Of a stretch of DNA of 24,000 nt, positions 1 through 21,760 are shown piece by piece. Origin of the DNA: Spartobacteria bacterium UBA695 (GTDB lineage: Bacteria > Verrucomicrobiota > Verrucomicrobiia > Chthoniobacterales > Chthoniobacteraceae). The notes under the pieces are model-generated. The model saw only the letters and a program-made list of their open reading frames with translations, ran no database searches and was not told the DNA's origin. Both the position numbers and the translations under genes were made by a program. Each line of letters begins with the position of its first letter. The first letter of the stretch is position 1. The stretch spans positions 276,702 to 300,701 of the forward strand of contig DBMP01000015.1 of NCBI GenBank assembly GCA_002298145.1, written 5' to 3'.

Positions 1-492
1 TCCCTCCGCTTTGCCACTGATATCTGGCGCGGGCTTTGGCGCCGCAATTTTTGGCACGACGAAAAGCCGGAGTTGCGAATCACGGGCCTTGGGAATTTCC
101 TCCCGGGCGCTGGTGTCGCCCCAGATGCCGCCCGTCATGCCAAACTCCATGTTGGACTGCCCGGAACAAACCCACACGTCGCCCACAAGAACGTCATGCA
201 AGATAACGGTGTTCTTGCCAATAACCGTTAGCTCCACAGCGGTGCCGGGATCCGCAAGCCGCCCCAGCAGGACCTTCCATTTCCCATCCGGCCCGGTGAT
301 CGTGGAAGCGCTCACCGAACCCACGCTCACCGTGACCTTTTCATCGGGGTCCGCCCACCCCCAAACAGGCAGCGTGCTTTCCCGTTGAAGCACCATGTGA
401 TCACCGAAGATGCGCGGGAGGCGGACGTCTGCTTTCACCACGCCACTCGATGCGAAAATGAGCGCGGTGGCGATGAATGCTGAATGTTTCAT
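1..492 (-). CDS. Sialate O-acetylesterase-like SGNH carbohydrate esterase, secreted (N-terminal part only; gene runs off the left edge)
   Basis: Absent from the ORF track because it has no stop in the window. Reverse-strand translation from the ATG at 492-490 gives MKHSAFIATALIFASSGVVKADVRLPRIFGDHMVLQRESTLPVWGWADPDEKVTVSVG...DVLVGDVWVCSGQSNMEFGM. This is a signal peptide followed by the LPxIFxDHMVLQR and GQSNME blocks characteristic of this esterase family. The listed + ORF 11..388 is its antisense shadow. Confidence 0.8.
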   Translation of the reverse strand, partial: MKHSAFIATALIFASSGVVKADVRLPRIFGDHMVLQRESTLPVWGWADPDEKVTVSVGSVSASTITGPDGKWKVLLGRLADPGTAVELTVIGKNTVILHDVLVGDVWVCSGQSNMEFGMTGGIWGDTSAREEIPKARDSQLRLFVVPKIAAPKPAPDISGKAEG

Positions 493-503
493 AACCAGAC
501 AGT

Positions 504-3650: not shown

Positions 3651-3679
3651 GAAGGGTATTATTGGTTATGCACAAGGCT

Positions 3680-5542: not shown

Positions 5543-5570
5543 CCTGACGGTTTGATGATTTCGCTATCGG

Positions 5571-6944: not shown

Positions 6945-6947
6945 GGC

Positions 6948-9125
6948 TTACTGGCCACTAACAATGGCGGCGCGTCCCTCGGATTGGTCTGGAAGGAGTT
7001 CCTTCACCTTCAACCCCAGCTCGCCCGCATATTCAACCGATAGTCGGCGGCGATCACTAAACTCCACGGTCGCGATCTGCTTCACCGCATCCACGCTGAC
7101 CGCTTTTACGGGGTTGGCCTCGCCTGGACGCAAAGGAATTAAGAGCGTTAGCAACGTCTGCGGTCCGGTGCCGGTGCGGGTATGGAGCAACGTCGTGGCG
7201 GGAATATTCCCTTTGCCTACATAGTCGCGGAGCACGTTCCAGCCGAGGAGTTCTGGCGTTTCCTGCGCGGAGACCGCGGCCACCTCCAGGCCCTCGGCAA
7301 GCAATGGAAGCACCGCGAGATTGGCGACCCCATGATCGACGGTAATTAGCGTGTGGGTCGCCGGGTCCAATTGCGTTTTCGTTGTCAAAAGCTGCCAGCG
7401 GGCTTGGTAGCGATGCGGCACGGCATCGGCGGGAACCAAGCGGTCGGCTACGAGATAGAGATCTGGCTTGAGAAAGAGCACTTCGCGCCGCTGGACCGCA
7501 ATGCGGCGGTGCTCCGGCCCGTACCCCTGATCATAAACCCCCGTTGCATAGTCAAACACCGGGGTACTCGTCCAGCAGGCATCAATGGGGCCTTGGCTCA
7601 CCATGTTGGGATCGCGCATCAAGTCGTTCCAGTTAAAGACCCTGGTCTGATCCAGGCCATCTACGATCACACAGTTATGAGAGTAAGTTGAGATGCCCCA
7701 ATCCCGCCATTTGCTCTTTTCGTAGGCGCCCCCACCATTGTTGAACAACAATTCGCGCCCGTAGGCCCAGAGGAGTACATCCAGGCTATCCTGATGCTGG
7801 TGGCCGCCCCCCGCCGGACCAACGCGGAATGCGGCGAGGTTGCCTTGGCGATCCCAGCCGGAGCGCATGACCGCAAACCCGGAGTAGTTAAAGAAGTACG
7901 ACGTTTGCGATGGCTCCCGGCCCTCCTGCCCATCCGTGGCGAGCCAGCGGAAATCCGCCCGGTTTGGGAAATACGCCACAGCCTTTTTGAACGTTCCCTT
8001 GTCCATCCAGGAATCGTTAAACTTCATGGGGAAATAATCCGGCGTGCTCACCCCCATCAGCCAGTCGTAACCTTTCTCAAGGCTCCCGACATAGCCGGGC
8101 GGAAGGTCGGCTTCCCGATCGTTCCATCGCGCGATTTGCACAATTCTTAGCAACGTATCCAGAACGACTTGATGATATCCTGTGGATAGTTCGACCTGAG
8201 CCCCATCGGGCAAAAATTGTTGTTTGACCTGGGTGACCAACTGTTCCAGGGCAAAGCTGCGCCAGTCGGCGGCCTCGCGGAACTCGGGGAACAGGCACCC
8301 CGCGACGTACAAACCGCTCATTTCCGTGGCCAGCCAGTTGAACCGCGAGTGGCAGGCGCGGAGATAGCGGGCGTGGTCGAGAAAAGAGCCCGCCAGGGCC
8401 ATTAGATCGTCATCGCTCATCGACGGCGAATGGAGAAATGCCCAATAGGCATCCGGCCAGGTTTGCCCCATGCGGATCCCCGCTTCGAGCGTTCGCCAGG
8501 TCAGCCCCGGCGATTGCCTGGCGCTACCCGGTGCCGGGCATTGATCGATCCACGAATGCATCTGCCGCACAAACGCCTTGGCATAGGTTTCATCACCGGT
8601 AGCGGTGTAGGCACCGGCCAGCGAAACCCAGAGCCACATCCGGTTTAAATAATACGTCCATTCGTTGTTGGGCGCGTATTCCGGGCTCTGTTCCGTGGCG
8701 TTATAGCTCCAGTCGATCACCCCGTTGGGAAACGCATGCACCGGGGAAACGGCGCCCTTGTTGACCCGGCCTGCGACCGCGTCATCGGCAGCCCCTTTAT
8801 CGAAGCGAAGCCCCACCTTTCGGCTCCCGTCGGGGTTCTCGCGCCAGTGGACATTCCTGCGTTCGCGCAAGTACTTGGCAAACGCCGCCACGGCCGCTGG
8901 CTGATCGTTATTGCGCAACGCTTGCGCCACGGCAGCCAGCTCGGGCCGCGTGAGGTCCAGCGACGCCAGCACATCGCTGGCCGGGGCGCTTTGAAGCGCA
9001 GACGCCACTCCGATCAAACAGGTGACAACGATGACCCATTTTCGAAAGATCAGGGAATGGAAAAGGAAGACCATGGGGAAATATGCGTTCGGGCGAATCT
9101 TGAGTTCAGCAGGCGGGGGAAGCAA
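6948..9125 (-). CDS. Heparinase II/III-like polysaccharide lyase family protein, secreted (725 aa; alternative start at 9074)
   Basis: The N-terminal alginate-lyase-like helical region is followed by a heparinase II/III-like C-domain with GGGHQHQDSLDVLLWAYGRELLFNNGGGAY and YSHNCVIVDG blocks. A signal-peptide-like MVFLFHSLIFRKWVIVVTCLIGVASALQSA begins at the internal ATG at 9074, which may be the true start. Confidence 0.85.
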   Translation of the reverse strand: MLPPPAELKIRPNAYFPMVFLFHSLIFRKWVIVVTCLIGVASALQSAPASDVLASLDLTRPELAAVAQALRNNDQPAAVAAFAKYLRERRNVHWRENPDGSRKVGLRFDKGAADDAVAGRVNKGAVSPVHAFPNGVIDWSYNATEQSPEYAPNNEWTYYLNRMWLWVSLAGAYTATGDETYAKAFVRQMHSWIDQCPAPGSARQSPGLTWRTLEAGIRMGQTWPDAYWAFLHSPSMSDDDLMALAGSFLDHARYLRACHSRFNWLATEMSGLYVAGCLFPEFREAADWRSFALEQLVTQVKQQFLPDGAQVELSTGYHQVVLDTLLRIVQIARWNDREADLPPGYVGSLEKGYDWLMGVSTPDYFPMKFNDSWMDKGTFKKAVAYFPNRADFRWLATDGQEGREPSQTSYFFNYSGFAVMRSGWDRQGNLAAFRVGPAGGGHQHQDSLDVLLWAYGRELLFNNGGGAYEKSKWRDWGISTYSHNCVIVDGLDQTRVFNWNDLMRDPNMVSQGPIDACWTSTPVFDYATGVYDQGYGPEHRRIAVQRREVLFLKPDLYLVADRLVPADAVPHRYQARWQLLTTKTQLDPATHTLITVDHGVANLAVLPLLAEGLEVAAVSAQETPELLGWNVLRDYVGKGNIPATTLLHTRTGTGPQTLLTLLIPLRPGEANPVKAVSVDAVKQIATVEFSDRRRLSVEYAGELGLKVKELLPDQSEGRAAIVSGQ

Positions 9126-9161: not shown

Positions 9162-9181
9162 AATGGAAAATCACTTTCATT
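9162..9181. promoter_or_regulatory. Imperfect inverted repeat (AATGgAAA-atcac-TTTCATT) in the divergent lyase/lacI promoter region; candidate LacI-type operator
   Basis: TGAAA/TTTCA-like half-sites read directly in the 84-nt divergent intergenic region. The palindrome is imperfect, with non-canonical spacing and no central CG. Confidence 0.2.
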
Positions 9182-9209
9182 GGAAACGGGCTCGCGGTAT
9201 ATCTGTCGC

Positions 9210-10241
9210 ATGAAACGGCCCACCCTCCGGGACATCGCGGCGCTTGCACATGTCACCCACGTCACGGTTTCAATGGCGCTGCGGAAGCATCCGAACATCC
9301 CCGTGGCAACCCGGGAGAAGATCGAAAAAATCGCCAAGGAAATCGGCTACCATCCAGACCCCGCGCTGTCGGCTTTGATGATTTACCGGCGGGGAGCCAA
9401 GGCCTCCCGCTACCAGGCAACCCTGGCCTGGATCGACACCAGCCGACGAACACGCTCGGCTACGGGCGACACCTTCATTAGCCGCGTCTTTCTGGGCGCC
9501 CGGGAGCGGAGTGAGGAACTCGGCTACCGGCTCGAAGAATTCCGCACAAACGAGATGGATGTGAGCTTCGACCGGCTTTCGAAGATTCTCTACTCCAGGA
9601 ACATTCAAGGCGTGCTCTTCGCCCCCCACGATCAAGCCCACGCGCATATCAACTACCGAAGCTTCGACTGGGCCCGCTTTTCCGCCATCTCGTTTGGATT
9701 CAGCCTGGCGAGTCCCAAGCTCGATGTCATCGTCGATGCCCAATACCGCACCGCGCGCACGGCGGTAAGGCGCTTACGGGCGCTGGGTTATCGCAAAATT
9801 GGCTACGCCGCCTACCATGAGTTCGACGAGAGAACCGATGGCAACTTTTTAGGAGGTTTCCTCACCGAGCAGCTTCGCTCCCCGGTATCCAGCCGCATTC
9901 CTCCGCTGGCATGTCTAGGCAAAGACTTCGATAAAGAATGCCGCAAATGGTTCCGCCGCTACAAACCGGATGCCATCTTCGCACCCGTTCCCGATGTCGC
10001 CCGAGCCCTCAAGCCGGAGGAACTCAAAAAATGCGGTATCGCGATGAACAACCCCCCGGAGGATTTGGCTCACTATGCGGGCATCCGGCAGGATTACCGC
10101 ATCCTTGGGCAAATCGGCATTGATGAAGTCGTCGCCATGATCCACACCAACCGACGCGGAATCCCCACCATGCCCAAGCGCATCATGGTGGAGGGTTATT
10201 GGCAGGACGGCCCCTCCGCTCCCCGGGTTATTTTCCAATGA
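9210..10241 (+). CDS. LacI-family transcriptional regulator
   Basis: The N-terminal HTH MKRPTLRDIAALAHVTHVTVSMALRKHPNIPVATREKIEKIAKEIGYHPDPALSAL matches the LacI/GalR DNA-binding domain. The remainder is a periplasmic-binding-protein-like sugar-sensor fold. I place the start at the ATG at 9210 rather than the ORF-track ATG at 9180, which would add METGSRYICR. Confidence 0.9.
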   Translation: MKRPTLRDIAALAHVTHVTVSMALRKHPNIPVATREKIEKIAKEIGYHPDPALSALMIYRRGAKASRYQATLAWIDTSRRTRSATGDTFISRVFLGARERSEELGYRLEEFRTNEMDVSFDRLSKILYSRNIQGVLFAPHDQAHAHINYRSFDWARFSAISFGFSLASPKLDVIVDAQYRTARTAVRRLRALGYRKIGYAAYHEFDERTDGNFLGGFLTEQLRSPVSSRIPPLACLGKDFDKECRKWFRRYKPDAIFAPVPDVARALKPEELKKCGIAMNNPPEDLAHYAGIRQDYRILGQIGIDEVVAMIHTNRRGIPTMPKRIMVEGYWQDGPSAPRVIFQ

Positions 10242-10333: not shown

Positions 10334-11137
10334 ATGAAATCCCCCCGGTCACTTTCCAGTGCGTTGATTTATAGCGCGAGAGGCTTCTCGTTATTGGAGC
10401 TTTTGGCCGTGCTTGCCCTCGTCGCCATCCTCACCGCGCTGGTGGTTCCCGCTACCAGAGGGATGAAGGGCGCCCAGGACTTAACCGGCGCGGCCTACGC
10501 CATCCAGGGAGCTCTGGACCTGGCGCGCACCTATGCGATGGCCAACAATACCTATACATGGATCGGCTTTTTCGAGGAAGACAACGCCCACCCCTCGCAA
10601 ACTCCCGCACAGGCCGGTGTGGGACGCGTCGTCATCTGCGTCATCGCCTCGCGGGACGGGAGCTGCATCTATAACAAGACCACGGCGCAGGAGGATCCCC
10701 CGGCGGTCCAGAGCTTGCCCCCGGCTCGGTTGGTGCAAATCGGCAAACTCATCAAAATCCCCGGCGTCCATTTTTTTAACGCAACGGCCCAGGTGATCGG
10801 AAAACGCCAGGCGGGGATGATCGATGCGCAAAACCTCGTGGGCCTGAGTTCGCAGCCGTTGTTGTTCTCCTTTCAATACCCCCTTTCGAGCACCTCGGAA
10901 TACACCTTTGGAGTCCGGCCAGTACCATCGGCCAATGGCGTGCCAGTGGCCAACGGGGTAATCCAGTTTTCACCGAGGGGCGAAGCCATTTCCGACGCCG
11001 GTCCGATCACCTTTCCCTCCACCACCTTTGAAATCACCCTCCAAACCGCCCACGGCAATCAACCTGCCAATACCGCCAACGCCATTGCCCTGGATATCAA
11101 CGGCCTTACGGGGCAAACCACCATGTACCGTCCATGA
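10334..11137 (+). CDS. Prepilin-type N-terminal cleavage/methylation domain protein, GspH/FimT-like minor pseudopilin (candidate 'Verru_Chthon cassette protein D')
   Basis: Class III signal MKSPRSLSSALIYSARG|FSLLELLAVLALVAILTALVVPA, with Gly at -1, Phe at +1 and Glu at +5. 267 aa. The stop overlaps the next gene's start (ATGA at 11134-11137). Confidence 0.8.
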   Translation: MKSPRSLSSALIYSARGFSLLELLAVLALVAILTALVVPATRGMKGAQDLTGAAYAIQGALDLARTYAMANNTYTWIGFFEEDNAHPSQTPAQAGVGRVVICVIASRDGSCIYNKTTAQEDPPAVQSLPPARLVQIGKLIKIPGVHFFNATAQVIGKRQAGMIDAQNLVGLSSQPLLFSFQYPLSSTSEYTFGVRPVPSANGVPVANGVIQFSPRGEAISDAGPITFPSTTFEITLQTAHGNQPANTANAIALDINGLTGQTTMYRP

Positions 11138-11583
11138 AAACTCGCGATCGTAACCGCTCTGCCTTTTCGCTGGTGGAGGTCGTGCTGGCCTTGGGCATCG
11201 CCTCCTTTTCGATGGTGTCAATCCTCGGCTTGCTCCCCGTGGGGCTTAGCAACAGCCGCAGTTCGACCGCGCAGACCGGGGCGATGAATTTGATCACGGC
11301 CATTGCCGCCGACATTCGCTCCACACCATCAACAGCTTCAGCCTCTCCCCGGTATGCAATCCCCACCGGCGACACCACTAGCCAGACGTTCTATTTTGAC
11401 GAACAAGGGCACATCGCCACCGGCCTTCAAACCAGCTCCCGCTACAAAGCGCTAGTCCAAGCCATCTGGCAATCCTCCACCAACGCAACGATGCACCGGG
11501 TCACCGTGTCGTGGCCCGCGCAGGCAGAAGCCTCCACCATGGGCGGCTCGGTCGACGTAATGGTGTCGCTTGCCAGGAACTAG
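11134..11583 (+). CDS. Prepilin-type N-terminal domain protein, GspI/PilV-like minor pseudopilin (candidate 'Verru_Chthon cassette protein B')
   Basis: MKTRDRNRSA|FSLVEVVLALGIASFSMVSILGLLPVGL, with Phe at +1 and Glu at +5. 149 aa. Translationally coupled to the upstream gene. Confidence 0.8.
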   Translation: MKTRDRNRSAFSLVEVVLALGIASFSMVSILGLLPVGLSNSRSSTAQTGAMNLITAIAADIRSTPSTASASPRYAIPTGDTTSQTFYFDEQGHIATGLQTSSRYKALVQAIWQSSTNATMHRVTVSWPAQAEASTMGGSVDVMVSLARN

Positions 11584-11601
11584 TCCCACCACCACCCCGT
11601 C

Positions 11602-12717
11602 ATGGCGCATCCATCCCCTCCAATGACCGACAGCAGCCGCCGCTGCTCCCGTAGGGTTCATGCGGAGGGACTGGCGTTTACGTTGATCGAGATCATGGTG
11701 TCGGTCAGCATCCTGATCCTGATCGTCCTACTAGTGAACCAACTGGTCAACAGCGCCTCCATGACCACCCTCACCGCGAGCAAACGGATCGACTCCGACA
11801 ACCAGGCGCGCCTGATTTTCGCCAAGATGGCGGAAGACTTTGACGCCATGTATCGACGCGGCGACCTTCATTACTATTTCCTGAGCCAAAGCGGGAACGA
11901 CGCCTTTTACTTTTACTGCCAGGCCCCCGGCCACATTGCCCCTCAAGACGTTTCCGGCACGAGCGACGCCTCCCTCAACCATTCCTCCCTGGTCGGCTAC
12001 CGCGTCAGCGACAGGATCAGCGGCGGCAGCCGGGTGGAACTCGAACGGCTCGGACGCGGCTTGCACTGGGCTGATGGCGCGGGCCAGACCGGCACGGACG
12101 GCCACGCCACCTCGGTACTTCATCTGCCGTGGCTGATCAAAAACGCCTTCTCCGAAGCCCTGGCCGACGCCCATAACAACTCCTCCAATCCCTACGGCAA
12201 CACCTCCACCAGCGCGCCGCAGTGGGATGTTATTGGGGACCAAGTCTTCCGGATGAAGTTTTGCTTTTTGCTTACCGACGGAAGCTTCAGCCTCACGCCC
12301 ATACTGAGCAATACCGCCACCCTCAATAACCTGACGGCCACCGCCGCGCCCGGCACCGGCAACGACTCCGCGGCGGGATACTCCGTGGGCTCCCGTTGGT
12401 ACGACACCTCCGCCAGCGTCGCCTACACCTGCATCAACGCCGCGCCAAACACCGCACTGTGGGCGCCCTCGGGGCTTCAGGACGTCAAGGCCGTGGTCGT
12501 CACCCTTGCGCTCATGGACTCCAAGAGCCGCACCACCACCACGGTCAGCGCCATCCAAAAGGCCATATCCAGTATGCGCGACGCCACCCCGGGCCCCCAG
12601 GCAGCCACCTGGATGCCCCAGACCGACGATGCCGCAGCCATCGCCCGGAACTCCGGCTTGAGCCGCGCGGCAGCCTCTTCCATTCGCGTTTACGAACGCT
12701 TCTTTTACCTGCAATAG
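11602..12717 (+). CDS. Prepilin-type N-terminal domain protein, GspJ/PilW-like minor pseudopilin (candidate 'Verru_Chthon cassette protein C')
   Basis: ...RRVHAEGLA|FTLIEIMVSVSILILIVLLVNQLV, with Phe at +1 and Glu at +5. 371 aa from the ATG at 11602; an alternative in-frame ATG lies at 11623. The leader is unusually long (25 aa from 11602). The gene starts 18 nt after the previous stop. Confidence 0.75.
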   Translation: MAHPSPPMTDSSRRCSRRVHAEGLAFTLIEIMVSVSILILIVLLVNQLVNSASMTTLTASKRIDSDNQARLIFAKMAEDFDAMYRRGDLHYYFLSQSGNDAFYFYCQAPGHIAPQDVSGTSDASLNHSSLVGYRVSDRISGGSRVELERLGRGLHWADGAGQTGTDGHATSVLHLPWLIKNAFSEALADAHNNSSNPYGNTSTSAPQWDVIGDQVFRMKFCFLLTDGSFSLTPILSNTATLNNLTATAAPGTGNDSAAGYSVGSRWYDTSASVAYTCINAAPNTALWAPSGLQDVKAVVVTLALMDSKSRTTTTVSAIQKAISSMRDATPGPQAATWMPQTDDAAAIARNSGLSRAAASSIRVYERFFYLQ

Positions 12718-12725
12718 CCCCGCCC

Positions 12726-15700
12726 ATGCTCCCCCCCATCCATAACCGCCCCCAAGGCCGCGCCCCCCAGGGAGCCGCGCTGGTGCTGGTTCTCTGCTTT
12801 GCCGTATTGGTCGCGGGGCTTGCGGTGGCCTTTTTTTCCCGGGCCAGCACGGAGCGCCAGGCCTCCAACGCCAGCGCCAATGGGACCAAGGTGGAGCTGC
12901 TAGCCGACGCCGCCCTGAACGTCATCGTCGATGACCTCAAAGAAGAGATCATCAATAACTCCACCACCAGCGGCACCGGCTCCAACGTCCTCTACATCCC
13001 CAAGGCGGGCGCCAACGCCGTGCCCCAGCGTCAGGCGGCCATCGCATCGGGCCCCCTCGCCAACCTGCTCCGCATCAGCAGTCACACCGATGCGGGCACC
13101 CGCGCCGCCGCCCTCCTTTCCACGGGCACCTCCTATAACGGCCGCTCCGTAAGCCTCCCTCGCTGGAACCTGCACTACCTGCTCCCCCTCAAAACCAGCG
13201 GCACCTCCAGCAGCACCTTGGGCGACTCCACCCCGGCCTCCGCATTCACCGCCCCGGACTGGGTCATCCTCACTCGTAACGGCCCCACCGCATCAGCCTC
13301 TGTCCGGACGCTCTCCAGCGCCACCAACGCCAACTACGCCATCGGGCGCTATGCCTATGCGATCTACGACGAAGGGGGCCTTTTGGACATCAACTCGGCG
13401 GGCTACCCCTCTTCCTCCACCGGAACCCAATCCGGCCCCAAAGGCGGCCTCGCCTACGCCGACCTCACACAACTAACCGACGGCTCCGGCACCCCGCTGC
13501 TCACCCAAACGCAGATCGACCAGATCGTGGGCTGGCGCAACTACGCCACCGCCCAACCCTCGGGAACCTTCCCGAACTACACCTTCGACACCGCCGGAGC
13601 AGCCCGCTACCAGACCCTGGCCATCTCCAGCAGCTCCAACCCGCTCTACGTCTCCGGCTCCAGCTACAACGGCAACACCGACCACACCATCCTGAACCGC
13701 CAGCAGCTCATCAAACTACTGCAAAGCATCGGCTCCACCCCGGCGGAGAAAATCAATCTCCAAAACGCCCTGCAATACCTCGGCACCTTCTCGCGCGAAG
13801 TCAACGGCCCCACCTTCTCCGGCACCGGAGCCGACACCAGCGACTACAACCCGCCCCACATTTTCGACGTCAAAGTATCCGGAACATTCACGCGCAACGA
13901 CGGCAGCATCGCCACCAAGGGAGAGCCGCTGGTGAAAAACCGCTTCCCGCTTGAGAAACTGGCCCTTCTGGAAAAAATGCGGGGCATCCCGTTGGGCACC
14001 AGCACCCTTAGCGCCAGCGATATCGACGACATCGCCCGGTATTTCGGCCTCGACCCGGTGAGCGACTCCAACGGCTGCTACCGCCACTGGAGCTACCCCA
14101 CCACCAGCCCCAAATATAAACACCCGGACCCGAACGGCATCATGTCGCTTGCCAGCGTGGCTGCCCAAAATCGCGAACCCGATTTCTTCGAAATGCTCCA
14201 GGCCGCCCTTGCCCAGGGCTCGCTGGGGAAAGGAAACGTCCGGGGCGATTTACTCAACGGCTCCTACTCCCTCACCAGCTCCCCGGCCTTTGTGGACCCG
14301 GATGCCCGAGTCACTTTGCAAACCCTCCGCATCGGGGCCAACCTCATTGATCAGTGGGACACAGACAATTACCCCACCACCATCACGGCAACCTCCACGG
14401 GCGATAGCGTCTACGGCATCGAAGACCTCCCCTACCTCAACGAATTCCTCTTCCGTTTCATCGGCAACGGCAGCACCGCAACCAGCTCCACCTACGCCGC
14501 CTGCATCGCCTTCGAGTTGTGGAATCCCCATCAACTCCTCGCCTCCAACACCGGCACCTATCCCGCCGAGCTTCAAATATCGCCCCTCAACATCCCAAGC
14601 AGCGCCGCCCTCTCAGACTACTACCGCATCGGCGTCATCGCCACGGATTCCAATAATACCAAGAGCTATTGGTACTACAACGGCACCACCCAGCAATGGG
14701 TCACCTCCTACCCGATGAACCGCTTTTCCAATGCCCTGAACCAAGGCATCATCGGCCCCTTCACGACCACGCAGACCGACTTCCGCGAACCGGCCCTCAG
14801 CTCCACGCTCGTGCTCAACACCCCCATCAGTCTTCCCGCCGATTCCGTAACCAGTGGAACGTCGATCTGGTCGCAAGCCGTATCCCGAGGCACCGGAAGT
14901 TTAACCCTCTACGTTTCCCTCGTTTATCGCCTCCAATATCGAGACGCGAACGGCACCTTCCGGACCTATGGCACCTTCGTCGGGCAAGACAACGCCGCCG
15001 CCACCCTTCCCGGCACCGGCTATCAACAGTTCTCCTGGATCGGATTCAATACCGCAGCCCAATCCTCCGGATGGTATTCCTGCCCCAAGGCGGACCCCCG
15101 CACCTACCGTTTTGGCACGGGGTATAACGACAACTTCTCCGCTAGCTTCGCGGGCAAAAGCCTGACGCCCAGCGCCTCCGACATCCAGGGCCCCATCCGC
15201 GAGATATTGCCCTTCAGCGGCGGCAACTCCCTCCCAAAGCCCTATCGGGTTGACCTCTGGGCCGTCAACGACCCCGCCGATCCCAATGGCGGCCCCCCCG
15301 CCACCAACATAGCGAAACCCTACTACCCCGATAAAGATAACCAAACAAGACCCGGCGACGCCCTCTACTCCTACACCGCCATCCCATCCATCAGCCCCCT
15401 CTATGATGCCAGCCACGGAGGACCAGCGGCGCGGCCGGTCATCCTCAACCGCCCTTTCCGCTCCATCGGCGAACTCGGCTACGTCTTCCGCGACATGCCG
15501 TGGAAAACCCTCGACCTTTTTTCCAAATACAGTGCCGACGCAGCATTACTCGATCTGTTCTCCCTCCACGGCAGCCAGCCCCTCCTGGCCGGTCGCCTGA
15601 ACCCCAATACCCGCCAGAAAAACGTCCTCGCCGCCCTCCTCACCGGCGCCACCCAGGCCAGCGGCACCGCGAGCAACGTCACCGCCGCAAACGCCACCAG

Positions 15701-16034
15701 CGTCGCCAACGCCATCATCGCCCTCAGCTCTGACACCGCGTTTGCAAACCGCACGGAACTAGTCACCCGGCTGATGGCCGACTCCGCCATTGGAAACATC
15801 TCAACCATCAAAACAGAGCGGGAATCCGTCGTACGCGCCCTGGCCGACTGCGCCAACACCCGCACCTGGAATTTGCTGATCGATCTCGTCACCCAAGTTG
15901 GGAAATACCCGCCCACGGCAACCTCCCTGGATCAATTCATCGTTGAGGGAGAGCGCCATTATTGGCTCCACGTAGCCATCGACCGCTACACCGGCCGCGT
16001 CGTCGATAAACAACTAGAAGTCGTCCGCGAATGA
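12726..16034 (+). CDS. Giant GspK/PilX-like pseudopilin-family protein, 1102 aa (candidate 'Verru_Chthon cassette protein A')
   Basis: I start it at the ATG at 12726, 8 nt after the gene C stop: MLPPIHNRPQGRAPQGAALVLVLCFAVLVAGLAVAFFSRA. This is a hydrophobic pilin-like N-terminus lacking Glu+5, as in GspK/PilX. The internal IYDEGGLLDINSAG and C-terminal GRLNPNTRQKNVLAALLTGA resemble GspK D-x-x-G-x-x-N-x-N and N-x-NTA...L motifs. The ORF-track start at 12396 would overlap gene C out of frame and encodes Arg/His-rich junk. Confidence 0.7.
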   Translation: MLPPIHNRPQGRAPQGAALVLVLCFAVLVAGLAVAFFSRASTERQASNASANGTKVELLADAALNVIVDDLKEEIINNSTTSGTGSNVLYIPKAGANAVPQRQAAIASGPLANLLRISSHTDAGTRAAALLSTGTSYNGRSVSLPRWNLHYLLPLKTSGTSSSTLGDSTPASAFTAPDWVILTRNGPTASASVRTLSSATNANYAIGRYAYAIYDEGGLLDINSAGYPSSSTGTQSGPKGGLAYADLTQLTDGSGTPLLTQTQIDQIVGWRNYATAQPSGTFPNYTFDTAGAARYQTLAISSSSNPLYVSGSSYNGNTDHTILNRQQLIKLLQSIGSTPAEKINLQNALQYLGTFSREVNGPTFSGTGADTSDYNPPHIFDVKVSGTFTRNDGSIATKGEPLVKNRFPLEKLALLEKMRGIPLGTSTLSASDIDDIARYFGLDPVSDSNGCYRHWSYPTTSPKYKHPDPNGIMSLASVAAQNREPDFFEMLQAALAQGSLGKGNVRGDLLNGSYSLTSSPAFVDPDARVTLQTLRIGANLIDQWDTDNYPTTITATSTGDSVYGIEDLPYLNEFLFRFIGNGSTATSSTYAACIAFELWNPHQLLASNTGTYPAELQISPLNIPSSAALSDYYRIGVIATDSNNTKSYWYYNGTTQQWVTSYPMNRFSNALNQGIIGPFTTTQTDFREPALSSTLVLNTPISLPADSVTSGTSIWSQAVSRGTGSLTLYVSLVYRLQYRDANGTFRTYGTFVGQDNAAATLPGTGYQQFSWIGFNTAAQSSGWYSCPKADPRTYRFGTGYNDNFSASFAGKSLTPSASDIQGPIREILPFSGGNSLPKPYRVDLWAVNDPADPNGGPPATNIAKPYYPDKDNQTRPGDALYSYTAIPSISPLYDASHGGPAARPVILNRPFRSIGELGYVFRDMPWKTLDLFSKYSADAALLDLFSLHGSQPLLAGRLNPNTRQKNVLAALLTGATQASGTASNVTAANATSVANAIIALSSDTAFANRTELVTRLMADSAIGNISTIKTERESVVRALADCANTRTWNLLIDLVTQVGKYPPTATSLDQFIVEGERHYWLHVAIDRYTGRVVDKQLEVVRE

Positions 16035-16699
16035 AAGCGCTCCGTATCCTCACCCCGTTTCTGACGCTCCTTCTGTTTGCAGGGATCCCGCCCATCCGCG
16101 CACAAGATCGCGAACTACCAGCGCCAAAGCCCCCCTACATTGCCCCCCTTCCTCACGACGGGCACTGGCTGATCACCCTAAAGCGAGCCGAGCCAGACCC
16201 CGCACAAAGCATTTCAGACAAGCGAGCCCGAACCGTCACCCCCGAGCCGATTCCCACAGCGATCGACACCCTCAAAACCGGCGACACCAAACGCATCACC
16301 CTCACCTTCAGGGACGGCACAGCACAGCAGATCCATCAAGTCCGGGGATACATCCTGACAACAGCCGCCGAAGGCCCCCAGATCTCAACCGCCACGCCAG
16401 GCGCTCCGCCCTATCCGTTTTACACCACGGCCTTCCTTTTCGTCGAAAACATCGGGCCCTCAACCTTCAAAGGCGTAGCATCCATCCAGGGAAAAGAGTG
16501 TTTCTATTACCGGACTGGAACCACCGAAGCATGGATCGACATCGACTCCATGCTCCCCATCGCAAGCAAAGCCGAGGGAATCATCGCCCATTTCCAATTC
16601 CTCCCGCCGCCCACCACCCCCATTGCCCTGCCGCCAGAGGAAGCATCGATTCTCAACCAGCAGGAAAGAGCCCACACCGCCGCCAGCTTAATGCGATAA
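16031..16699 (+). CDS. Secreted protein of unknown function (222 aa), translationally coupled to the giant pseudopilin-like gene
   Basis: ATGA start/stop overlap at 16031-16034. Sec signal peptide MKALRILTPFLTLLLFAGIPPIRA|QD. The mature part is Pro-rich and then beta-rich. It has no pilin-like N-terminus and I recognise no family. Confidence 0.7.
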   Translation: MKALRILTPFLTLLLFAGIPPIRAQDRELPAPKPPYIAPLPHDGHWLITLKRAEPDPAQSISDKRARTVTPEPIPTAIDTLKTGDTKRITLTFRDGTAQQIHQVRGYILTTAAEGPQISTATPGAPPYPFYTTAFLFVENIGPSTFKGVASIQGKECFYYRTGTTEAWIDIDSMLPIASKAEGIIAHFQFLPPPTTPIALPPEEASILNQQERAHTAASLMR

Positions 16700-18085
16700 A
16701 TCATCGGCGCTCTCAGGAGCGTTATTGTACCAGTCCAGCCGCCGGGTAAAGAACATCACCGAGGCGACCGCCACAAACAACATCGCTGTACCAAATACCA
16801 TCGCGTAATCCTGCATTTGCGTCATCACATAAAAGGACGCCTGGAGAATGGCGAGGATCGCCGAAATGATAAGCGTCTTCCGGCCGCTCTTAAGCACCGA
16901 GAGCGAATACAGCGAAATCATCGCCCAGGCCGCAAACGAAGACACCGCATACGCCCTGCTGAAAGAGTAGAACTCCGATAGCGCGAGGATGCCGAGATAA
17001 AAGACGCAAATCGCCGCGCCAACCAGGATATATTGGAAGGGATGGATTCTGATTTTCGCTATCACCTCGAATAAAAAATAGGCCGTGAACATCAGTAGGA
17101 TAAAGAGCACCGCATACTTAACCGTCCGCTCGGTCTGACGATAGTTATCGACCGGCGCCTTTAATTTAACGCCAAACGTACTGGCAGAAAGGGACTCGAT
17201 GGGCTGGTTCTGCGTCCATTGCTGCGGGTAATTGCGGCCGTAATAGGAGAGATTCCATGACGCCGTAAAGCCCCCCGGCCGCACATCCCGCGACGAGGGC
17301 AGGAACTTCCCCTCAAAAGAGGGATCGGGCCAAAGCGAAGAGAGTCGCACCCTGGTTTCCGTGCCAAGGGGCGCAAAAGCCAGCGTTTCGCTACCGTTAA
17401 GCGAAAGCGGAAACGAAAATGGATAAGGCGCTGAAGACTGGCTCGTAGCGGCCAACCCTTTCACCGGCGCGTGGATACCGCTTGGAGCCCCCGGAATATC
17501 GCTACCGGGCAGGAACGTCGAGGTCCCGCTGCCAAATTGCAGAGGGATTTTCTCGCTCGCCCCGCGCAAATCGCTCACCCGCATGCATAATTGCGCCTCC
17601 TCCCAACGGACATCTTTCGGGTCGATCTTCAGCTCCGCGAGGCCGGAAAAATCGAACGTCCCGGAGATATCGAAACGCGCCTGATACACGACCGCCTCAT
17701 AGATTCCGCGGTGCAGCTTCTGGGGTTCCACCTTTCCAACAATCTCAAGATTACGCGGCAGCAGGAATGCATCGTCGATACTCGTCTTTTCCACCTCCAC
17801 CGTCTGCATTTTGCCGTCGATTTCCTTTTGCTGAGACACCTTTGTCCGCAGCACATACGGCACCTTAAGAATCGGGCCGATCAACTCCTGCGAAGTCCCC
17901 CACGTACCGTTGATCTCCCGAATCGCATCATTATGACGGGTCAACCGGTCATTCAACTGAGACTCGACCATCGAGAGCGGAATACACATCAGGAGCAACA
18001 AGAACCCGATGACAGCAAGCTTAAATAGAATCGAAAAGCGGCTTAAAAAGCGCTTCAAAACAGGGAGAAAGCCAGGGTCCGGCAT
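16688..18085 (-). CDS. creD: Cell envelope integrity / inner membrane protein CreD
   Basis: Clear similarity to E. coli CreD: WPDPSFEGKFLPSSRDVRPGGFTASW versus WPHPSFLGDFLPAKREVSESGFQAHW, and YRQTERTVKYAVLFILLMFTAYFLFEV versus YQLTDRATKYAILLIALTFMAFFVFET. The ORF track begins at 18175. I prefer the internal ATG at 18085 (MPDPGFLPVLKRF...) because the extra 30 aa look non-coding. Confidence 0.9.
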   Translation of the reverse strand: MPDPGFLPVLKRFLSRFSILFKLAVIGFLLLLMCIPLSMVESQLNDRLTRHNDAIREINGTWGTSQELIGPILKVPYVLRTKVSQQKEIDGKMQTVEVEKTSIDDAFLLPRNLEIVGKVEPQKLHRGIYEAVVYQARFDISGTFDFSGLAELKIDPKDVRWEEAQLCMRVSDLRGASEKIPLQFGSGTSTFLPGSDIPGAPSGIHAPVKGLAATSQSSAPYPFSFPLSLNGSETLAFAPLGTETRVRLSSLWPDPSFEGKFLPSSRDVRPGGFTASWNLSYYGRNYPQQWTQNQPIESLSASTFGVKLKAPVDNYRQTERTVKYAVLFILLMFTAYFLFEVIAKIRIHPFQYILVGAAICVFYLGILALSEFYSFSRAYAVSSFAAWAMISLYSLSVLKSGRKTLIISAILAILQASFYVMTQMQDYAMVFGTAMLFVAVASVMFFTRRLDWYNNAPESADDLSH

Positions 18086-18352
18086 GCCCGGCAGTTTCCC
18101 CCGGAAGCAAAGCCAAGGCAAGCCGCAAGATAACCCAACCCGAAGCCCCCGGGAACCGGAAGCCTCGCAGCCCACCCCAAAATTTCTGTTGCTTATTTCC
18201 CGAAAAGCCTCATGCTAGGGGGAATTGGATTTGATATTTGGATAGTTCGTTGCTCGGTAAATTGTCAGGTGGGTTCGCCCGGTGGTGATTTTGAGACCCG
18301 ATTCTCGGGAACGGCTTTGCAGCTTGTCGATTGAGACTCCACCACCATTACT

Positions 18353-18661
18353 ATGAAACTTTACGTCGGAAATCTTTCCTTCGATACCACCGAAAACGAC
18401 CTTCAGGATCTTTTCGCCCAATACGGCACCGTCTCTGAAGCCGCCCTGATGCAAGACCGCATGACCGGCCGCTCGCGCGGATTCGCGTTCGTGACGATGG
18501 GCAGCGCCTCGGAAGGCGAAGCCGCCATCAGCGCCCTTCACGGCAAACAAGTCCAAGGCCGCGCCCTTACGGTCAACGAAGCCCGCCCCCGCGAAGAACG
18601 TGGTGGGAACGGCGGCCGTTCGTTCTCCGGCGGCGGATCCCGCGGTGGTTCGCGCCGTTAA
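18353..18661 (+). CDS. RRM-type (RNP-1/RNP-2) RNA-binding protein with Gly/Arg-rich tail
   Basis: [10 protein letters not shown] (RNP-2) ... RGFAFVTM (RNP-1) ... C-terminal [20 protein letters not shown]. This is the classic bacterial Rbp architecture. Confidence 0.93.
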
Positions 18662-18734: not shown

Positions 18735-18956
18735 ATGGCTGTAAACGATACCATACAAACTGAAGGCAAAATCAAAGCTGTACTGGCAGGCACGATGTTC
18801 CGGGTCGAACTGGCCAACGAACACCTCGTGCTCGCCCATATTTCCGGCAAAATGCGCAAGCGCTTCATCCGACTGACGCTGGGCGACCGGGTCAAACTCG
18901 AAATGTCGCCCTACGACCTCAACAAGGCGCGCATTGTTTATCGGTTACAGGGGTAA
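18735..18956 (+). CDS. infA: Translation initiation factor IF-1
   Basis: [73 protein letters not shown] aligns along its full length with E. coli InfA (..[46 protein letters not shown]). The ORF-track start at 18600 overlaps the rbp gene and is not credible. Confidence 0.95.
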
Positions 18957-18972: not shown

Positions 18973-19608
18973 CATTGATCGCAAGTAGGTAGCATCTTCC
19001 TCCGTCTGTAAACGCGGGAAGAACTCCGGCGGATGGGTGCCGACGGATGGCTTTTTGTGGACAGCGTCCACAAAACAAAAACACCCAAATCAGAAAACCA
19101 GGGCCCGCAAGGGCCAACCCGCCAACGCCGAGGCGGGTCACGGCGTATCCTCTCGCAAAAAAAAACCAAGGCAACGGCAAAGACAGCCTGGTTTTTTAGG
19201 CCAATAACCGCGCCGCCCATCCTCCGGGCGCCCCCCCGCCGCCGCCGCATTCGCGTCGTGCGTATGCCCGCCGAACACATCGGCCTTTCCAAAGAATGCC
19301 CCGGATGCCTCAAGCGTTGGCATCTGCGATCCTCCTTCGGCAACAACTTGGAACCGGCCCAGAGCAAGGACATCAAAAAGCAGAGCCTCTTTTCCGTCAT
19401 CTGCTGCACCCAAAAAATGGAAAGCCTCGCATATAATGTTCCAGACCATTGAGCACGGATGGAAGCCCGGATTAGGGCCGAACGATATGCCCTACTGGAT
19501 GTGCTGCAATGGGAGATGGAGTTTAATAGATTGGAGCGGAATGCACCGTTTTGAGCAACAACGTTTCCGCAGTTGACTTTCCACCTTCAACATGAATCAC
19601 ATTAAAAC

Positions 19609-19929
19609 ATGCTAACACTTGTTATTAACGCTCCACGCTATCAGATCTCAAGGCGTTCGTTTTCAGAGACGATGGAAATAGGCATCGGAAATAACTACGC
19701 TCTTAATAGGAATATACTCGTACAGGCAAAGAAGGCTCACAATGTAATCTTGCTCGACAAAACCGCCAGAAAAAAGGCCACAGGCGTGATTGACAAGATA
19801 GTGGCGACAGGAAACATGACTCGAAGCGGGATTCCCAGATTTGATATTTACATGAAAAACCTAACCGCATGCGAGTATGCCTCCGAAAAACTTAACCGGA
19901 ATGGAGTTAATATTATTGCGGAGGAATGA
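19609..19929 (+). CDS. Hypothetical protein (106 aa) in the low-G+C region
   Basis: Only substantial ORF in this AT-richer stretch: MLTLVINAPRYQISRRSF...GVIDKIVATGNMTRSGIPRFDIYMKNL.... I recognise no family, and coding status is not proven. Confidence 0.4.
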   Translation: MLTLVINAPRYQISRRSFSETMEIGIGNNYALNRNILVQAKKAHNVILLDKTARKKATGVIDKIVATGNMTRSGIPRFDIYMKNLTACEYASEKLNRNGVNIIAEE

Positions 19930-20067
19930 CGCAGAACCCGTAATGCTTGAAAATCATCGTGGGGGCGGTGCCCATTTGGAGGGCGAGAGGAGTCGACGCT
20001 ATGGCGTAGGGCGTTGGTGGGCCAGTTTTCTAGGAGTTAGCGGGAGGCCCACTTTTCAGAATAGAAA

Positions 20068-20116
20068 AAATGGTGCGCGATACAGGGTTCGAACCTGTGA
20101 CCCCTACCGTGTCAAG
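20068..20116. repeat. 49-bp exact direct repeat = displaced 3' half of tRNA-Val (att-like site, distal copy)
   Basis: AAATGGTGCGCGATACAGGGTTCGAACCTGTGACCCCTACCGTGTCAAG is identical to 20940-20988. It covers the tRNA from the CCA end through the T-arm to the anticodon loop. 10 of the next 15 nt also match the tRNA, then similarity ends. Confidence 0.85.
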
Positions 20117-20154
20117 TTCGTACTCAATCGCATTTTACAGAGGAGTTTTTCGCC

Positions 20155-20179
20155 TGTGCTAAAAAGTGCTGTGCTAAAT
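20155..20179 (+). repeat. Two copies of TGTGCTAAA (20155-20163, 20170-20178) just inside the distal repeat
   Basis: Read directly: cgccTGTGCTAAAaagtgcTGTGCTAAAtaaacg. They have the same orientation as the pair at 20833-20876. Confidence 0.6.
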
Positions 20180-20298
20180 AAACGTTCTTTCCCTGCGGTT
20201 TCCCCCTCCTCAATTCGCACGGGTCGAAAAAGAAACGGTTGACGGTAACTGCTGCCCTTCTCAGAATTCCCGCCCATGTCAAAAACGAAAGTTGTGGT

Positions 20299-20790
20299 AT
20301 GAGTCGCAGACAACGACAATTCTTCGTTGGGTTGCTGTTTTTATTTGTTTCCGCCGCTTTCGGCTTCCATGAGTTGACCAAGCAGAAAGTGAAAGATTCT
20401 AGCGGTCTTTCTGTGGTCAGCGGCCAGATGAGTTCATATTCCTTCAAGGCCGGTTCGAGGGGGCATGTTTATTATTATATTCACCTCGTTGGGTATAAGG
20501 CCACATTTCAGATTCCCGCTGATTTTTTGGATTCTTTTTCACAAGATCGTTTTCAGTCGGATTTGAAGATTGGCGATTCCATTTCGATCTCAATTCCGAA
20601 GGGCAACGAAAACAGTCTGAGCGCAGATAAGCGGTTATTTATCTTTTCCGTTCAAACAAAAGAGGCGACTTACCTCGATGAGCACGATGCCCTCAGGATA
20701 TACAACAGCAATTTTCCAACGTGGGCGTCTATTGCGTTTTTCCTGTCTGGATCGGGTTTGATATTTTTGAGACCTACGCATACGCCATAA
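20299..20790 (+). CDS. Small two-TM membrane protein (163 aa), unknown function (DUF3592-like topology)
   Basis: I start at the internal ATG at 20299: MSRRQRQFFVGLLFLFVSAAFGF (TM1), then a beta-rich segment of about 110 aa, then PTWASIAFFLSGSGLIFL (TM2). Low G+C. It is the sole cargo between the att-like repeats. Confidence 0.6.
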   Translation: MSRRQRQFFVGLLFLFVSAAFGFHELTKQKVKDSSGLSVVSGQMSSYSFKAGSRGHVYYYIHLVGYKATFQIPADFLDSFSQDRFQSDLKIGDSISISIPKGNENSLSADKRLFIFSVQTKEATYLDEHDALRIYNSNFPTWASIAFFLSGSGLIFLRPTHTP

Positions 20791-20832
20791 AAATGGTGCT
20801 GCAGGCCAGCCGATGATCTGCGCTTAATTCGC

Positions 20833-20876
20833 TGTGCTAAACTCATCGGCTTCCCAGAGTAAATGGGTGTGCTAAA
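20833..20876 (+). repeat. Two copies of TGTGCTAAA (20833-20841, 20868-20876) just inside the tRNA-proximal repeat
   Basis: Read directly: cgcTGTGCTAAActcatcgg...aaatgggTGTGCTAAAtaggg. I did not see this 9-mer elsewhere in the window. Confidence 0.6.
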
Positions 20877-20939
20877 TAGGGAAACGGAGCTTTACGCAAT
20901 GCGGCCTCCCGCTCACGCAAGGCCCTCGGAATCAACAAG

Positions 20940-21017
<78 letters not shown>

Positions 21018-21109: not shown

Positions 21110-21580
21110 TCAAACCCCTGCGCCAACAGGTACGCCCCTCCGCTCTTTCTTCACCCGGGCGATGGCTTCCCCGGCCAGGACGTCGCAGCGCTCGTTGTAG
21201 TGGTTGCCCGCGTGGCCTTTGACCCACCGCCAGACGATGCTGTGCCCCTGGACGGCGTCGTCGAGCGCCCGCCAGAGGTCGTCGTTCTTCACCGGCGTCT
21301 TCTGCCGGGTCTGCCAGCCGCGCGCTTTCCACCCCTTGATCCACTCTGTGATGCCCTTGCGCAGGTACTCGGAGTCGGTGAAAAACTCGATTTCGCACGG
21401 CTCCCGTAGCGCGCCCAGGCCCGCGATGGCCGCCTGGAGTTCCATTCGGTTGTTGGTCGTGGCAGGGTCGCCGCCGTTGAGTTCCTTGGTGCGGCCGTTC
21501 CATAACAGCACCGCGGCCCAACCGCCCGGGCCGGGGTTCCCGTGGCATCCGCCGTCGGTGTAGATGGTGACTTTTTTCAA
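21110..21580 (-). CDS. rnhA: Ribonuclease HI
   Basis: (M)[24 protein letters not shown]...[18 protein letters not shown]...[25 protein letters not shown]...[11 protein letters not shown]...[20 protein letters not shown] aligns with E. coli RnaseHI ([26 protein letters not shown]...). I use the TTG at 21580 as the start. The ORF-track ATG at 21730 adds 50 non-homologous residues and overlaps the divergent gene's upstream region. Confidence 0.88.
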
Positions 21581-21760
21581 TGGGGAAATGGCGGGTTCGC
21601 TTTGGAGGTTTAGGGGAGGTGCAAGGATGGGGAGATGAGGGCGAAAGGGTGCCGCGCGGGGGGCGTTTTGTCCAGTTTGGAGCGTTTTTTCAGGGGAACC
21701 GGGCGATCTCTCACTTGCGATTTGGCCCACAGCAGCGAAGTTGCCGGGCTTTTTTCCATT

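Follow-up and report, generated by a model that had tools for sequence, protein, structure and literature searches.

A family of giant GspK-like proteins in sugar-associated prepilin cassettes of Verrucomicrobiota: candidate glycan-recognising tip subunits

Introduction

The GspH-I-J-K set of type II secretion systems (T2SSs) and the FimU-PilV-W-X set of type IV pili (T4P) form a priming tip complex, with the K subunit at the apex. The gene described here, named A, encodes a probable remote relative of this K subunit and was found in a stretch of 24,000 nucleotides from Spartobacteria bacterium UBA695 (contig DBMP01000015.1 of assembly GCA_002298145.1, forward-strand positions 276,702 to 300,701), hereafter called the window. 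Its 1102-residue product is encoded by the fourth of five same-strand genes that abut or overlap one another, in the order D-B-C-A-E, next to genes for sugar utilisation. The likeness to GspK, the gene order, and the genetic neighborhood are consistent with A being the GspK-equivalent subunit of a minor pseudopilin set, which would act as a glycan-recognising tip cap specific to its sugar locus. We give this reading a probability of about 0.5.

GspK (also PulK, XcpX, or EpsK; families PF03934, PF21687, and NF037980) shares with A a leader ending in glycine, followed by [VA]-A-L and hydrophobic residues without a glutamate at position +5, and a long alpha-1 helix. Both are encoded by the last gene after H-, I-, and J-like prepilins, and both appear to have a C-terminal helical domain holding the motif aN.p..s.sEL..v.G and then INxNT, followed by terminal beta-strands. 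A differs from GspK in being about 3.4 times longer, with around 630 residues placed between the first beta-strands and the alpha-domain, in being encoded away from core T2SS genes, and in occurring as many paralogous copies by sugar-utilisation genes.

Verru_Chthon cassette proteins A to D (TIGR02600, TIGR02598, TIGR02599, and TIGR02596) is the name given by NCBIfam/TIGRFAMs to the multi-copy cassettes of Verrucomicrobium and Chthoniobacter. The cassette of the window resembles these in belonging to the same phylum, in joining one protein of more than 1000 residues to three prepilin-type proteins, in its multiple copies, and in its B protein, which passes TIGR02598. It is unlike them in that the matches of A, C, and D to these models are confined to the N-terminal helices, and in its conserved fifth gene, E. 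Literature searches on the names of the Verru_Chthon cassettes found no paper in the searchable library.

Pilins with a bulky extra module at the filament tip include PilB (with a von Willebrand factor A module) and PilC (with a lectin) from Streptococcus sanguinis, and CofB from enterotoxigenic Escherichia coli (PMC8179133, PMC9934059). Minor pilins with grafted binding modules thus exist, one of them binding glycan, and GspK itself has been seen as a modular pilin (PMC8179133, PMC9934059). As predicted, A also combines an N-terminal pilin part with an extra folded module, which is what defines a modular pilin (PMC8179133). In PilB, PilC, and CofB, however, the module is a recognisable domain attached C-terminally via a linker, whereas the roughly 800 extra residues of A lie within the GspK-type fold and contain no known domain. 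In the type IVa pilus, FimU, PilV, PilW, and PilX are encoded together with PilY1/PilC of about 1100 residues, and this combination of minor pilins with one very large tip protein resembles the cassette. PilY1, unlike A, is no pilin and ends in a beta-propeller, while A has its own pilin-type helix and no propeller signal. A PilY1-like propeller was considered for A and rejected: no Pfam family matched at E<=1, and the C-terminus consists of helices and three strands.

Another system in the phylum is the mucin utilisation locus MUL2 from Akkermansia (Amuc_1099-1102), a verrucomicrobial pilus-type system tied to the acquisition of complex glycans (PMC13174399). Unlike the cassette, MUL2 uses an archaeal-type pilin together with PilM and forms a single locus. 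Conservation of MUL2 is lower in Chthoniobacterales, and Methylacidiphilales lack it (PMC13174399), whereas the family of A is abundant in both.

Relationship of A to GspK

The A gene starts at the ATG at 12726, located 8 nt past the TAG of the upstream gene (12715-12717), and its stop codon lies at 16032-16034. A mechanically longer open reading frame (ORF) starting with TTG at 12396 overlaps the upstream gene; this start, and other frames, were ruled out because the alignments of homologues begin at about residue 4-20 of the ATG-started protein. An earlier note, written from the letters of the window, had described an ORF of 1102 residues with a pilin-like anchor and two quoted motifs. All of this was borne out: the anchor is truly part of the protein, and the motifs are found at residues 213-226 (IYDEGGLLDINSAG) and 956-975 (GRLNPNTRQKNVLAALLTGA). 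The protein begins with MLPPIHNRPQGRAPQG/AALVLVLCFAVLVAGLAVAFF, where the stroke marks the end of the leader, and Gly16 is followed by AALVL. The leader of the family holds basic residues and ends as RRRG/[VA]AL, with the glycine followed by [VA]-A-L-[VI]-[IL]-V-L. This glycine is present at position 16 in 48 of 58 ungapped family sequences, and position +5 is occupied by I or L, not by Glu.

The profile of GspK used for comparison was built from 39 diverse sequences, mostly of about 290-390 residues, with GspK of E. coli K-12 as seed. When aligned to it with hhalign, the A family matched over the N-terminal helix with 95% probability (E 3.3e-8). Once the helix was removed from both profiles (query 78-1102), residues 858-1078 of A aligned with 142-316 of GspK at E 1.8e-4 and 48% probability, and residues 880-1102 alone matched the helix-less profile at E 1.9e-5 and 77%. 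A construct of A trimmed post hoc reached E 4.7e-6 and 86%, and constructs with the extra regions deleted aligned across GspK 2-316. Three pairs of motifs follow each other in the same order in both proteins: Y.D.DG..R.GD..Y in A and DWiD.D..GAED.Y in GspK, NRPFRSVGELGYAFRD and aN.pl.svsELr.v.G, and AGRvNPNT and l.INvNTA, where N961 of A is invariant in the family alignment. The gene order, which is similar to that of gspH-I-J-K, gives independent support to the relationship.

The highest score was obtained by a chimera of residues 195-232, 525-572, and 895-1102, which would place the variable domain inside the alpha-domain. We make no claim for this arrangement, since the contiguous stretch 833-880 does at least as well. 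In a control with a sliding window of 48 residues, positions 833-880 and 533-580, two candidate DWiD-like segments, stood out by about 5 and 3 standard deviations, respectively. The contiguous C-terminal alignment is accordingly taken as sound, and no specific insertion point is claimed.

On this evidence, homology between A and GspK appears to cover the pilin anchor and the alpha-domain, with A as a remote relative that no curated criterion would count as a GspK. The assignment as GspK/PilX-like made in the earlier note thus stands for the N-terminal helix, the ordered C-terminal motifs, and the gspK-like gene position, but not for direct searches with hidden Markov models (HMMs), which see the N-terminal helix or nothing. 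Similarity of the termini to GspK was found by hhalign at both ends, and the motif near residue 955 aligns in order with its GspK counterparts. The one near residue 215 fared less well. IYDEGGLLDINSAG does have D-x5-[DN]-x-N in common with GspK, but it aligns to the D.....N.N motif with an E of 0.16 and a second alignment puts the first motif of GspK at 139-152 instead, so that the proposed equivalence is plausible but ambiguous.

The D-B-C-A-E cassette

The four nucleotides shared by D and B, and likewise by A and E, illustrate how tightly the cassette is packed. A prepilin cleavage motif is present in each of D, B, and C, and position +5 is Glu in all three. D matches the GspH model (E 6e-9) and TIGR02596 (37.2 bits, cutoff 70) over its N-terminus only, and the profile of its family (70 sequences) aligns by hhalign with GspG and GspH of E. 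coli at 96.8% and 85.8%, respectively. B, which qualifies as a Verru_Chthon cassette protein B, gives weak hhalign matches to GspI and GspJ and a weak match to PilV (E 0.01). The profile of the C family (72 sequences) aligns with E. coli GspJ over residues 19-153 (95.4%, E 1.8e-8), and C reaches 27.4 bits against TIGR02599 (cutoff 256.5), at the N-terminus only. Among the family profiles of the cassette, GspK was matched by A only, and the order D-B-C-A mirrors the order gspH-I-J-K of E. coli.

E, a secreted protein with a Sec-type signal peptide, is a previously unrecognised fifth component of the cassette, with no relative in Pfam, NCBIfam, or the PDB. Its alignment shows the invariant residues W46, K82, G96, F135, C157, L175, P176, P192, and P194, numbered as in the protein of the window. 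Counterparts of about 180-265 residues are encoded at 13330-13950 in locus L001, 13699-14367 in L007, 13420-13959 in L009, and 13462-14978 in L002, which has two copies.

Some loci have an extra gene of about 235-247 codons just upstream of D (6811-7536 in L001, 6854-7597 in L002, 7138-7842 in L004, and 4284-4994 in L008). It is missing from the cassette of the window, shows CBM48-type matches (CBM, carbohydrate-binding module) in L002, and was detected in only 3 of 80 loci by an HMM built from the four sequences. A scan for promoters and terminators over 9-17 kb gave nothing informative above the shuffled expectation. The coding strand of the cassette (11001-17000) has a GC skew of -0.18 to -0.31 and a positive AT skew, much stronger than elsewhere in the window, which fits the Thr/Ser/Pro/Ala-rich composition (ACN, CCN, GCN, and TCN codons) of its proteins.

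Predicted structure of A

The structure of A was predicted by AlphaFold2 with 64 homologues, with a mean predicted local distance difference test score (pLDDT) of 86.7 and a predicted TM-score (pTM) of 0.87; 37 residues fell below a pLDDT of 50. The whole chain is thus predicted to be folded, with about 630-800 residues beyond the alpha-1 helix and the GspK-like parts modelled with high confidence. As the earlier note had read from the sequence, the part between the GspK-like elements is rich in S, T, N, G, and P (41.9% over residues 230-950) and contains no recognised domain, with no Pfam family matching A at E<=1. The further possibility of a disordered or low-complexity insert is ruled out by the model and by the composition, as none of the 30-residue windows in 230-950 has an entropy below 3.0 bits.

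Foldseek searches found no significant match for the full model in BFVD (none below E 0.02) or for residues 545-905, modelled in isolation, in the PDB (best E 0.045, TM<=0.3). The isolated model was moderately confident, with a pLDDT of 62.8 and a good core at 567-755. The lists held generic beta-sandwiches at noise level with low TM-scores throughout, such as leukocidins, legume lectins, CBM16/22, and FedF, and the lectin, CBM, or immunoglobulin-like (Ig) fold suggested for the insert by the earlier note was not found. The model predicts for A, with confidence, a new fold without known neighbours. An internal duplication of the GspK-like alpha-domain was considered as the origin of residues 233-600 and none was detectable (E>=0.066).

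Conserved and variable regions of A

Measured against A, conservation is high in residues 1-600 and 880-1102 and reaches its minimum at about 601-880, where mean identity per block of 40 residues is 0.17-0.33, compared with 0.27-0.75, mostly above 0.36, elsewhere. The biggest indels, counted as insert columns, cluster at 694-824. The same region stands out at every evolutionary distance: in paralogues, residues 601-880 are 41-49% identical and the other long regions 55-77%; in the orthologues P0005 and P0003, 72% and 90-97%; and in distant paralogues, 19-24% and 30-54%.

The earlier note had expected a hypervariable insert between conserved termini. This holds for residues 601-880, about a third of the insert, but not for 233-600, which is as conserved as the termini (66-77% identity among paralogues). 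Many invariant charged and aromatic residues are found in 233-600 and 790-795, and the invariant motif DPRTxRFG lies at 790.

Size and distribution of the A family

More than 1491 relatives of A came up in a word-indexed search, nearly all of 1050-1250 residues, most of them aligned over 97-100% of the query. Those with names come almost all from Chthoniobacter-type bacteria, Methylacidiphilales, and other metagenome-assembled genomes (MAGs) of Verrucomicrobiota. When 1.84 billion cluster representatives (clusters at 50% identity) were searched exhaustively with a profile, 6043 of them matched at E<=1e-3, 3086 at E<=1e-10, and 1877 at E<=1e-30, and the best 150 of these matches had 863-1471 residues and were almost all matched end to end. 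A length of 1102 residues is therefore the norm of the family and no private expansion of A. The description of A as expanded to about 1100 residues is correct with respect to canonical GspK, but was overstated as a peculiarity of this protein.

Membership in TIGR02600 was rejected for A, which scores 36.4 bits (cutoff 332.3) over the N-terminal helix only, and for seven other members, five of which match in the same N-terminal-only way and two not at all. These partial matches indicate that the A family is separate and uncurated, and sister to that of 'cassette protein A'. It is a large family without a curated model, whose relatives are known under annotation labels such as 'cassette A' or, for some homologues annotated by JGI, 'Tfp pilus assembly protein PilX'. 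A itself is an ordinary member, for which the most fitting description is that of a modular GspK-type minor pseudopilin belonging to a Verru_Chthon-like cassette.

A total of 404 loci of the family were confirmed in the species genomes of GTDB. Eighty of these were retrieved, 79 from Verrucomicrobiota and one from a Pyrinomonadaceae MAG. HMMs built from related loci detected C in 71, B in 70, D in 69, and E in 53 of the 80, some of which are truncated. The carriers are soil and freshwater Verrucomicrobia with many copies beside sugar-degrading genes. Nine of the 80 loci lie in the complete Chthoniobacteraceae genome CP170506.1, together with at least one more, which makes at least ten copies, and the contig of the window also holds a 62%-identical paralogue of A in an equivalent cassette. 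Outside Verrucomicrobiota, the family was seen only in two MAG contigs of 8-18 kb labelled as Acidobacteriota, L077 (DATAOU010000280.1, 'Pyrinomonadaceae') and P0091 ('Blastocatellia'), to be explained either by faulty binning or by lateral transfer as a rare event.

Genetic neighborhood

In the window, a LacI-family regulator separates the cassette from divergent sugar genes (504-9125, minus strand) encoding, among others, an alpha-mannosidase of glycoside hydrolase family 38 (GH38) and a transporter of the major facilitator superfamily (MFS). The heparinase-like protein is the only product of the sugar genes in the window with a signal-peptide-like N-terminus; the GH38, DUF5703, and GH130 proteins have no signal peptide. 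This gene set, similar to a polysaccharide utilisation locus (PUL), suggests a route in which a mannose-containing glycan would be imported and then digested.

The order D-B-C-A, usually followed by a homologue of E, was kept in seven related places. These adjoin LacI, GntR, or AraC regulators and MFS transporters, and the enzymes and modules encoded near them include GH36, GH42, SASA esterase, GH38, GH130, heparinase-like proteins, GH57/amylase, CBM48, CBM9, and CBM4_9; one of the seven adjoins genes for MshEN/T2SSE ATPases. A wider Pfam census took, for each of 49 full-length loci, the two large ORFs closest to it on either side, which gave 179 ORFs. It counted the regulator domains Peripla_BP_3 (9), LacI (8), and GntR (6), followed by MFS (8), GH38 (6), GH36/raffinose synthase (4), CBM9 (4), heparinase-like proteins (3), GH130 (2), CBM4_9 (2), and pectate-lyase-like folds (2), and also MshEN (4) and T2SSE (3).

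Proposed function and alternative explanations

By analogy with the described tip complexes, a locus-specific, ligand-recognising cap role for A is plausible. D, B, C, and A would assemble via their N-terminal helices into a tip complex like that of GspH-I-J-K, and this complex would prime and cap a short filament of a T2SS- or T4P-like machine encoded elsewhere. Given the apical place of the K subunit, the roughly 800 extra residues of A, above all the variable beta-rich part, would be exposed at the tip and serve there to recognise a ligand. Each cassette would be switched on together with its neighbouring sugar genes, so that a shared machine would gain a substrate-specific cap. The most likely ligand would be whichever polysaccharide or oligosaccharide the locus deals with. 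The cap might capture this ligand or pull it into the periplasm, upstream of import by the MFS transporter and of intracellular enzymes of the GH38/GH130 type. Capture or uptake of glycan is favoured over enzyme secretion because most enzymes of the locus are intracellular and an MFS importer is present. Links between pilus-type loci and glycan uptake have been described in Akkermansiaceae (PMC13174399), and another verrucomicrobium has a pseudopilin embedded in a PUL, with 67 paralogues, and over-expresses a PUL-linked pseudopilin on alginate (PMC13274419).

Several results weigh against this reading. The curated GspK models fail on A: Pfam T2SSK (PF03934) and T2SSK_1st (PF21687) give no match at E<=1, and NF037980 reaches 17.8 bits (cutoff 130) over residues 15-77 only, with an N-terminal-only match in four of seven other family members and none in three. 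PDB sequences searched with A by phmmer and with the family profile by hmmsearch returned nothing at E<=10, and the hhalign probabilities outside the helix range from 48 to 86%, the best of them from the constructs trimmed post hoc. Foldseek of the full model against the PDB gave a best E of 0.1 with GspK outside the top 50; the core is split by more than 600 inserted residues, a gap that a local aligner does not bridge. Since the variable beta-rich region matched no lectin, CBM, or Ig fold in the PDB, the binding of a ligand by A is purely our inference. The 24-kb window contains no gene for a secretin, platform protein, ATPase, or prepilin peptidase. The association of cassettes with sugar genes is qualitative, consisting of raw counts without a genome-wide background. 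Finally, the window and the related locus L007 both hold GH38, GH130, heparinase-like, and MFS genes, yet their A proteins are 23% identical in the variable region, which fits poorly with a simple rule of one glycan and one domain.

T2SS tip pseudopilins have been reported to contact substrates, and A might use its variable module, possibly with help from E, to recognise the exported enzyme or enzymes of the locus for the T2SS piston, each cassette being a locus-specific secretion adaptor. Homology and synteny do link the cassette with the pseudopilins of T2SSs and not with one particular T4P set, the heparinase II/III-like protein of the window could be such a cargo in view of its signal peptide, and exported-looking proteins with CBM9, CBM4_9, PATR, and autotransporter repeats flank other cassettes. 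Export of alginate lyases by a T2SS from a pseudopilin-containing PUL has also been proposed for Verruconatronum (PMC13274419). This selection of cargo is nevertheless unlikely, as the lack of signal peptides in the GH38, DUF5703, and GH130 proteins and the recurrent MFS importer point to uptake, and classical T2SSs export many cargos with one HIJK set, so that ten or more alternative sets would be unprecedented. Less probable still is that the cassette is a set of the FimU-PilV-PilW-PilX type in which A combines the roles of PilX and PilY1 as a tip adhesin for attachment and twitching, the link to sugars being incidental. The size of PilY1 is similar to the roughly 1100 residues of A, and the 'PilX' annotations of several homologues, the PilV match of B, the MshEN/T2SSE genes that flank some cassettes, and the pilus-based model of particle attachment in Akkermansiaceae (PMC13174399) would agree with it. 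A, however, shows neither a PilY1/PilC beta-propeller nor a PilX signal in Pfam at E<=1, its predicted secondary structure is not propeller-like, and ten or more paralogous sets per genome, each beside a different regulator and set of carbohydrate-active enzymes, fit substrate-specific roles better.

A might also be no filament subunit at all, but a bitopic, inner-membrane-anchored periplasmic enzyme or scaffold that keeps a pilin-like signal anchor. About 800 of its residues have no detectable homology to known proteins, the structural match to GspK is unproven, and the invariant charged and aromatic residues of 233-600 and 790-795, with the motifs WNPH, DPRTxRFG, and REPDFFE, could belong to such a protein. 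We consider this improbable, given the fixed-order link to three prepilin-type genes in about 88% of loci, the GspK-like C-terminal motifs aligning in the same order, and the predicted 60-residue alpha-1 helix typical of pilins.

The role of a glycan-recognising tip cap can be extended to a bolder and rather speculative scheme, which we hold to be doubtful. In Chthoniobacterales and Methylacidiphilales, interchangeable, sugar-regulated D-B-C-A-E tips would turn one T2SS- or T4P-like machine into substrate-specific glycan harpoons, where the variable module of A would bind a polysaccharide and filament retraction would draw this ligand across the outer membrane, to be processed in a 'selfish' manner in the periplasm and imported by MFS transporters. 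To our knowledge, these two groups have no SusC/D-type systems, and the scheme, if true, would be a pilus-based functional analogue of the Sus paradigm of Bacteroidota.

Verrucomicrobiota are major degraders of polysaccharides in soil, freshwater, and gut, and the A family may bear on how they move glycans across the outer membrane. The family comprises at least 1877 clusters at 50% identity, has at least ten copies in one genome, and neighbours sugar regulators, glycoside hydrolases, and MFS importers. Both it and its association with sugar loci merit experimental attention. Should the cassettes act as specificity adaptors, the large expansions of prepilin-type genes in the phylum would be explained, and the variable module would be a genomic marker of substrate specificity. 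Otherwise, A would still take the size range known for GspK-type subunits beyond 1000 residues, with a predicted fold that is new.

Features of the window

The coordinates of the cassette, of its sugar-related neighbours, and of the regions of A are collected in Table 1.

Table 1. Genes of the cassette and its neighborhood, and regions and predicted elements of protein A
Feature	Position in window	Residues of A	Strand	Remarks
GH38 alpha-mannosidase	504-3650		-	Pfam
DUF5703 protein	3680-5542		-	Pfam
MFS sugar transporter	5571-6944		-	Pfam
Heparinase II/III-like protein	6948-9125		-	Pfam
LacI-family regulator	9180-10241		+	Directly upstream of cassette; Pfam LacI E 1.9e-13, and Peripla_BP_3
Gene D, 267-aa prepilin-type, GspG/GspH-like, G/FSLLE	10334-11137		+	Pfam N_methyl 23.8 bits (cutoff 21.2)
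Gene B, 149-aa prepilin-type, A/FSLVE	11134-11583		+	TIGR02598 60.3 bits (cutoff 51.4)
Gene C, 371-aa prepilin-type, A/FTLIE, GspJ-like	11602-12717		+	hhalign against E. coli GspJ
Gene A, candidate giant GspK-like minor pseudopilin ('A-like' cassette protein)	12726-16034	1-1102	+	ATG start, 1102 aa
Putative GspK-type anchor	12726-12956	1-77	+	Basic leader, Gly16, hydrophobic alpha-1 helix 17-77 without Glu at +5
First beta-strands	12957-13421	78-232	+	Ending in IYDEGGLLDINSAG; D215, D221, N223 nearly invariant
Conserved, family-specific region, helical/mixed	13422-14525	233-600	+	Invariant REPDFFE, GANxIDQWDxD, YGIEDLPY, FELWNPH
Fast-diverging, indel-rich region; candidate specificity module	14526-15365	601-880	+	Beta-rich (strands 616-787) and ordered coil
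GspK-like alpha-domain and C-terminal strands	15366-16031	881-1102	+	Helices 914-1040, NRPFRSIGELGY at 908, GRLNPNT at 956; then three long C-terminal beta-strands 1047-1099
Predicted single alpha-1 helix of 60 residues		17-77		
Predicted beta-strands		79-215		
Predicted helical and mixed element		240-545		
Predicted beta-rich element		552-787		
Predicted ordered coil		788-900		
Predicted helices		914-1040		
Predicted three long terminal strands		1047-1099		
Gene E, 222 aa, Sec-type signal peptide	16031-16699		+	Conserved downstream of A in relatives
GH130 mannooligosaccharide phosphorylase	22725-23711		+	Pfam; further downstream of cassette

The remaining genes of the window include housekeeping genes for an inner-membrane protein CreD (16688-18175, minus strand), an RNA-binding protein of the RNA recognition motif (RRM) type (18353-18661, plus strand), and RNase H (21110-21730, minus strand). 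An ORF at about 18740-18956 on the plus strand has a C-terminal part that reads, by eye, like translation initiation factor IF-1. Over about 19-21 kb (19000-21017), the G+C content falls from about 0.55-0.65 to 0.48-0.52. This stretch adjoins a tRNA-Val(GAC) gene (20943-21017, minus strand) and holds small ORFs without a Pfam match, such as the one at 20239-20790, and it could be the remnant of an integrated element.

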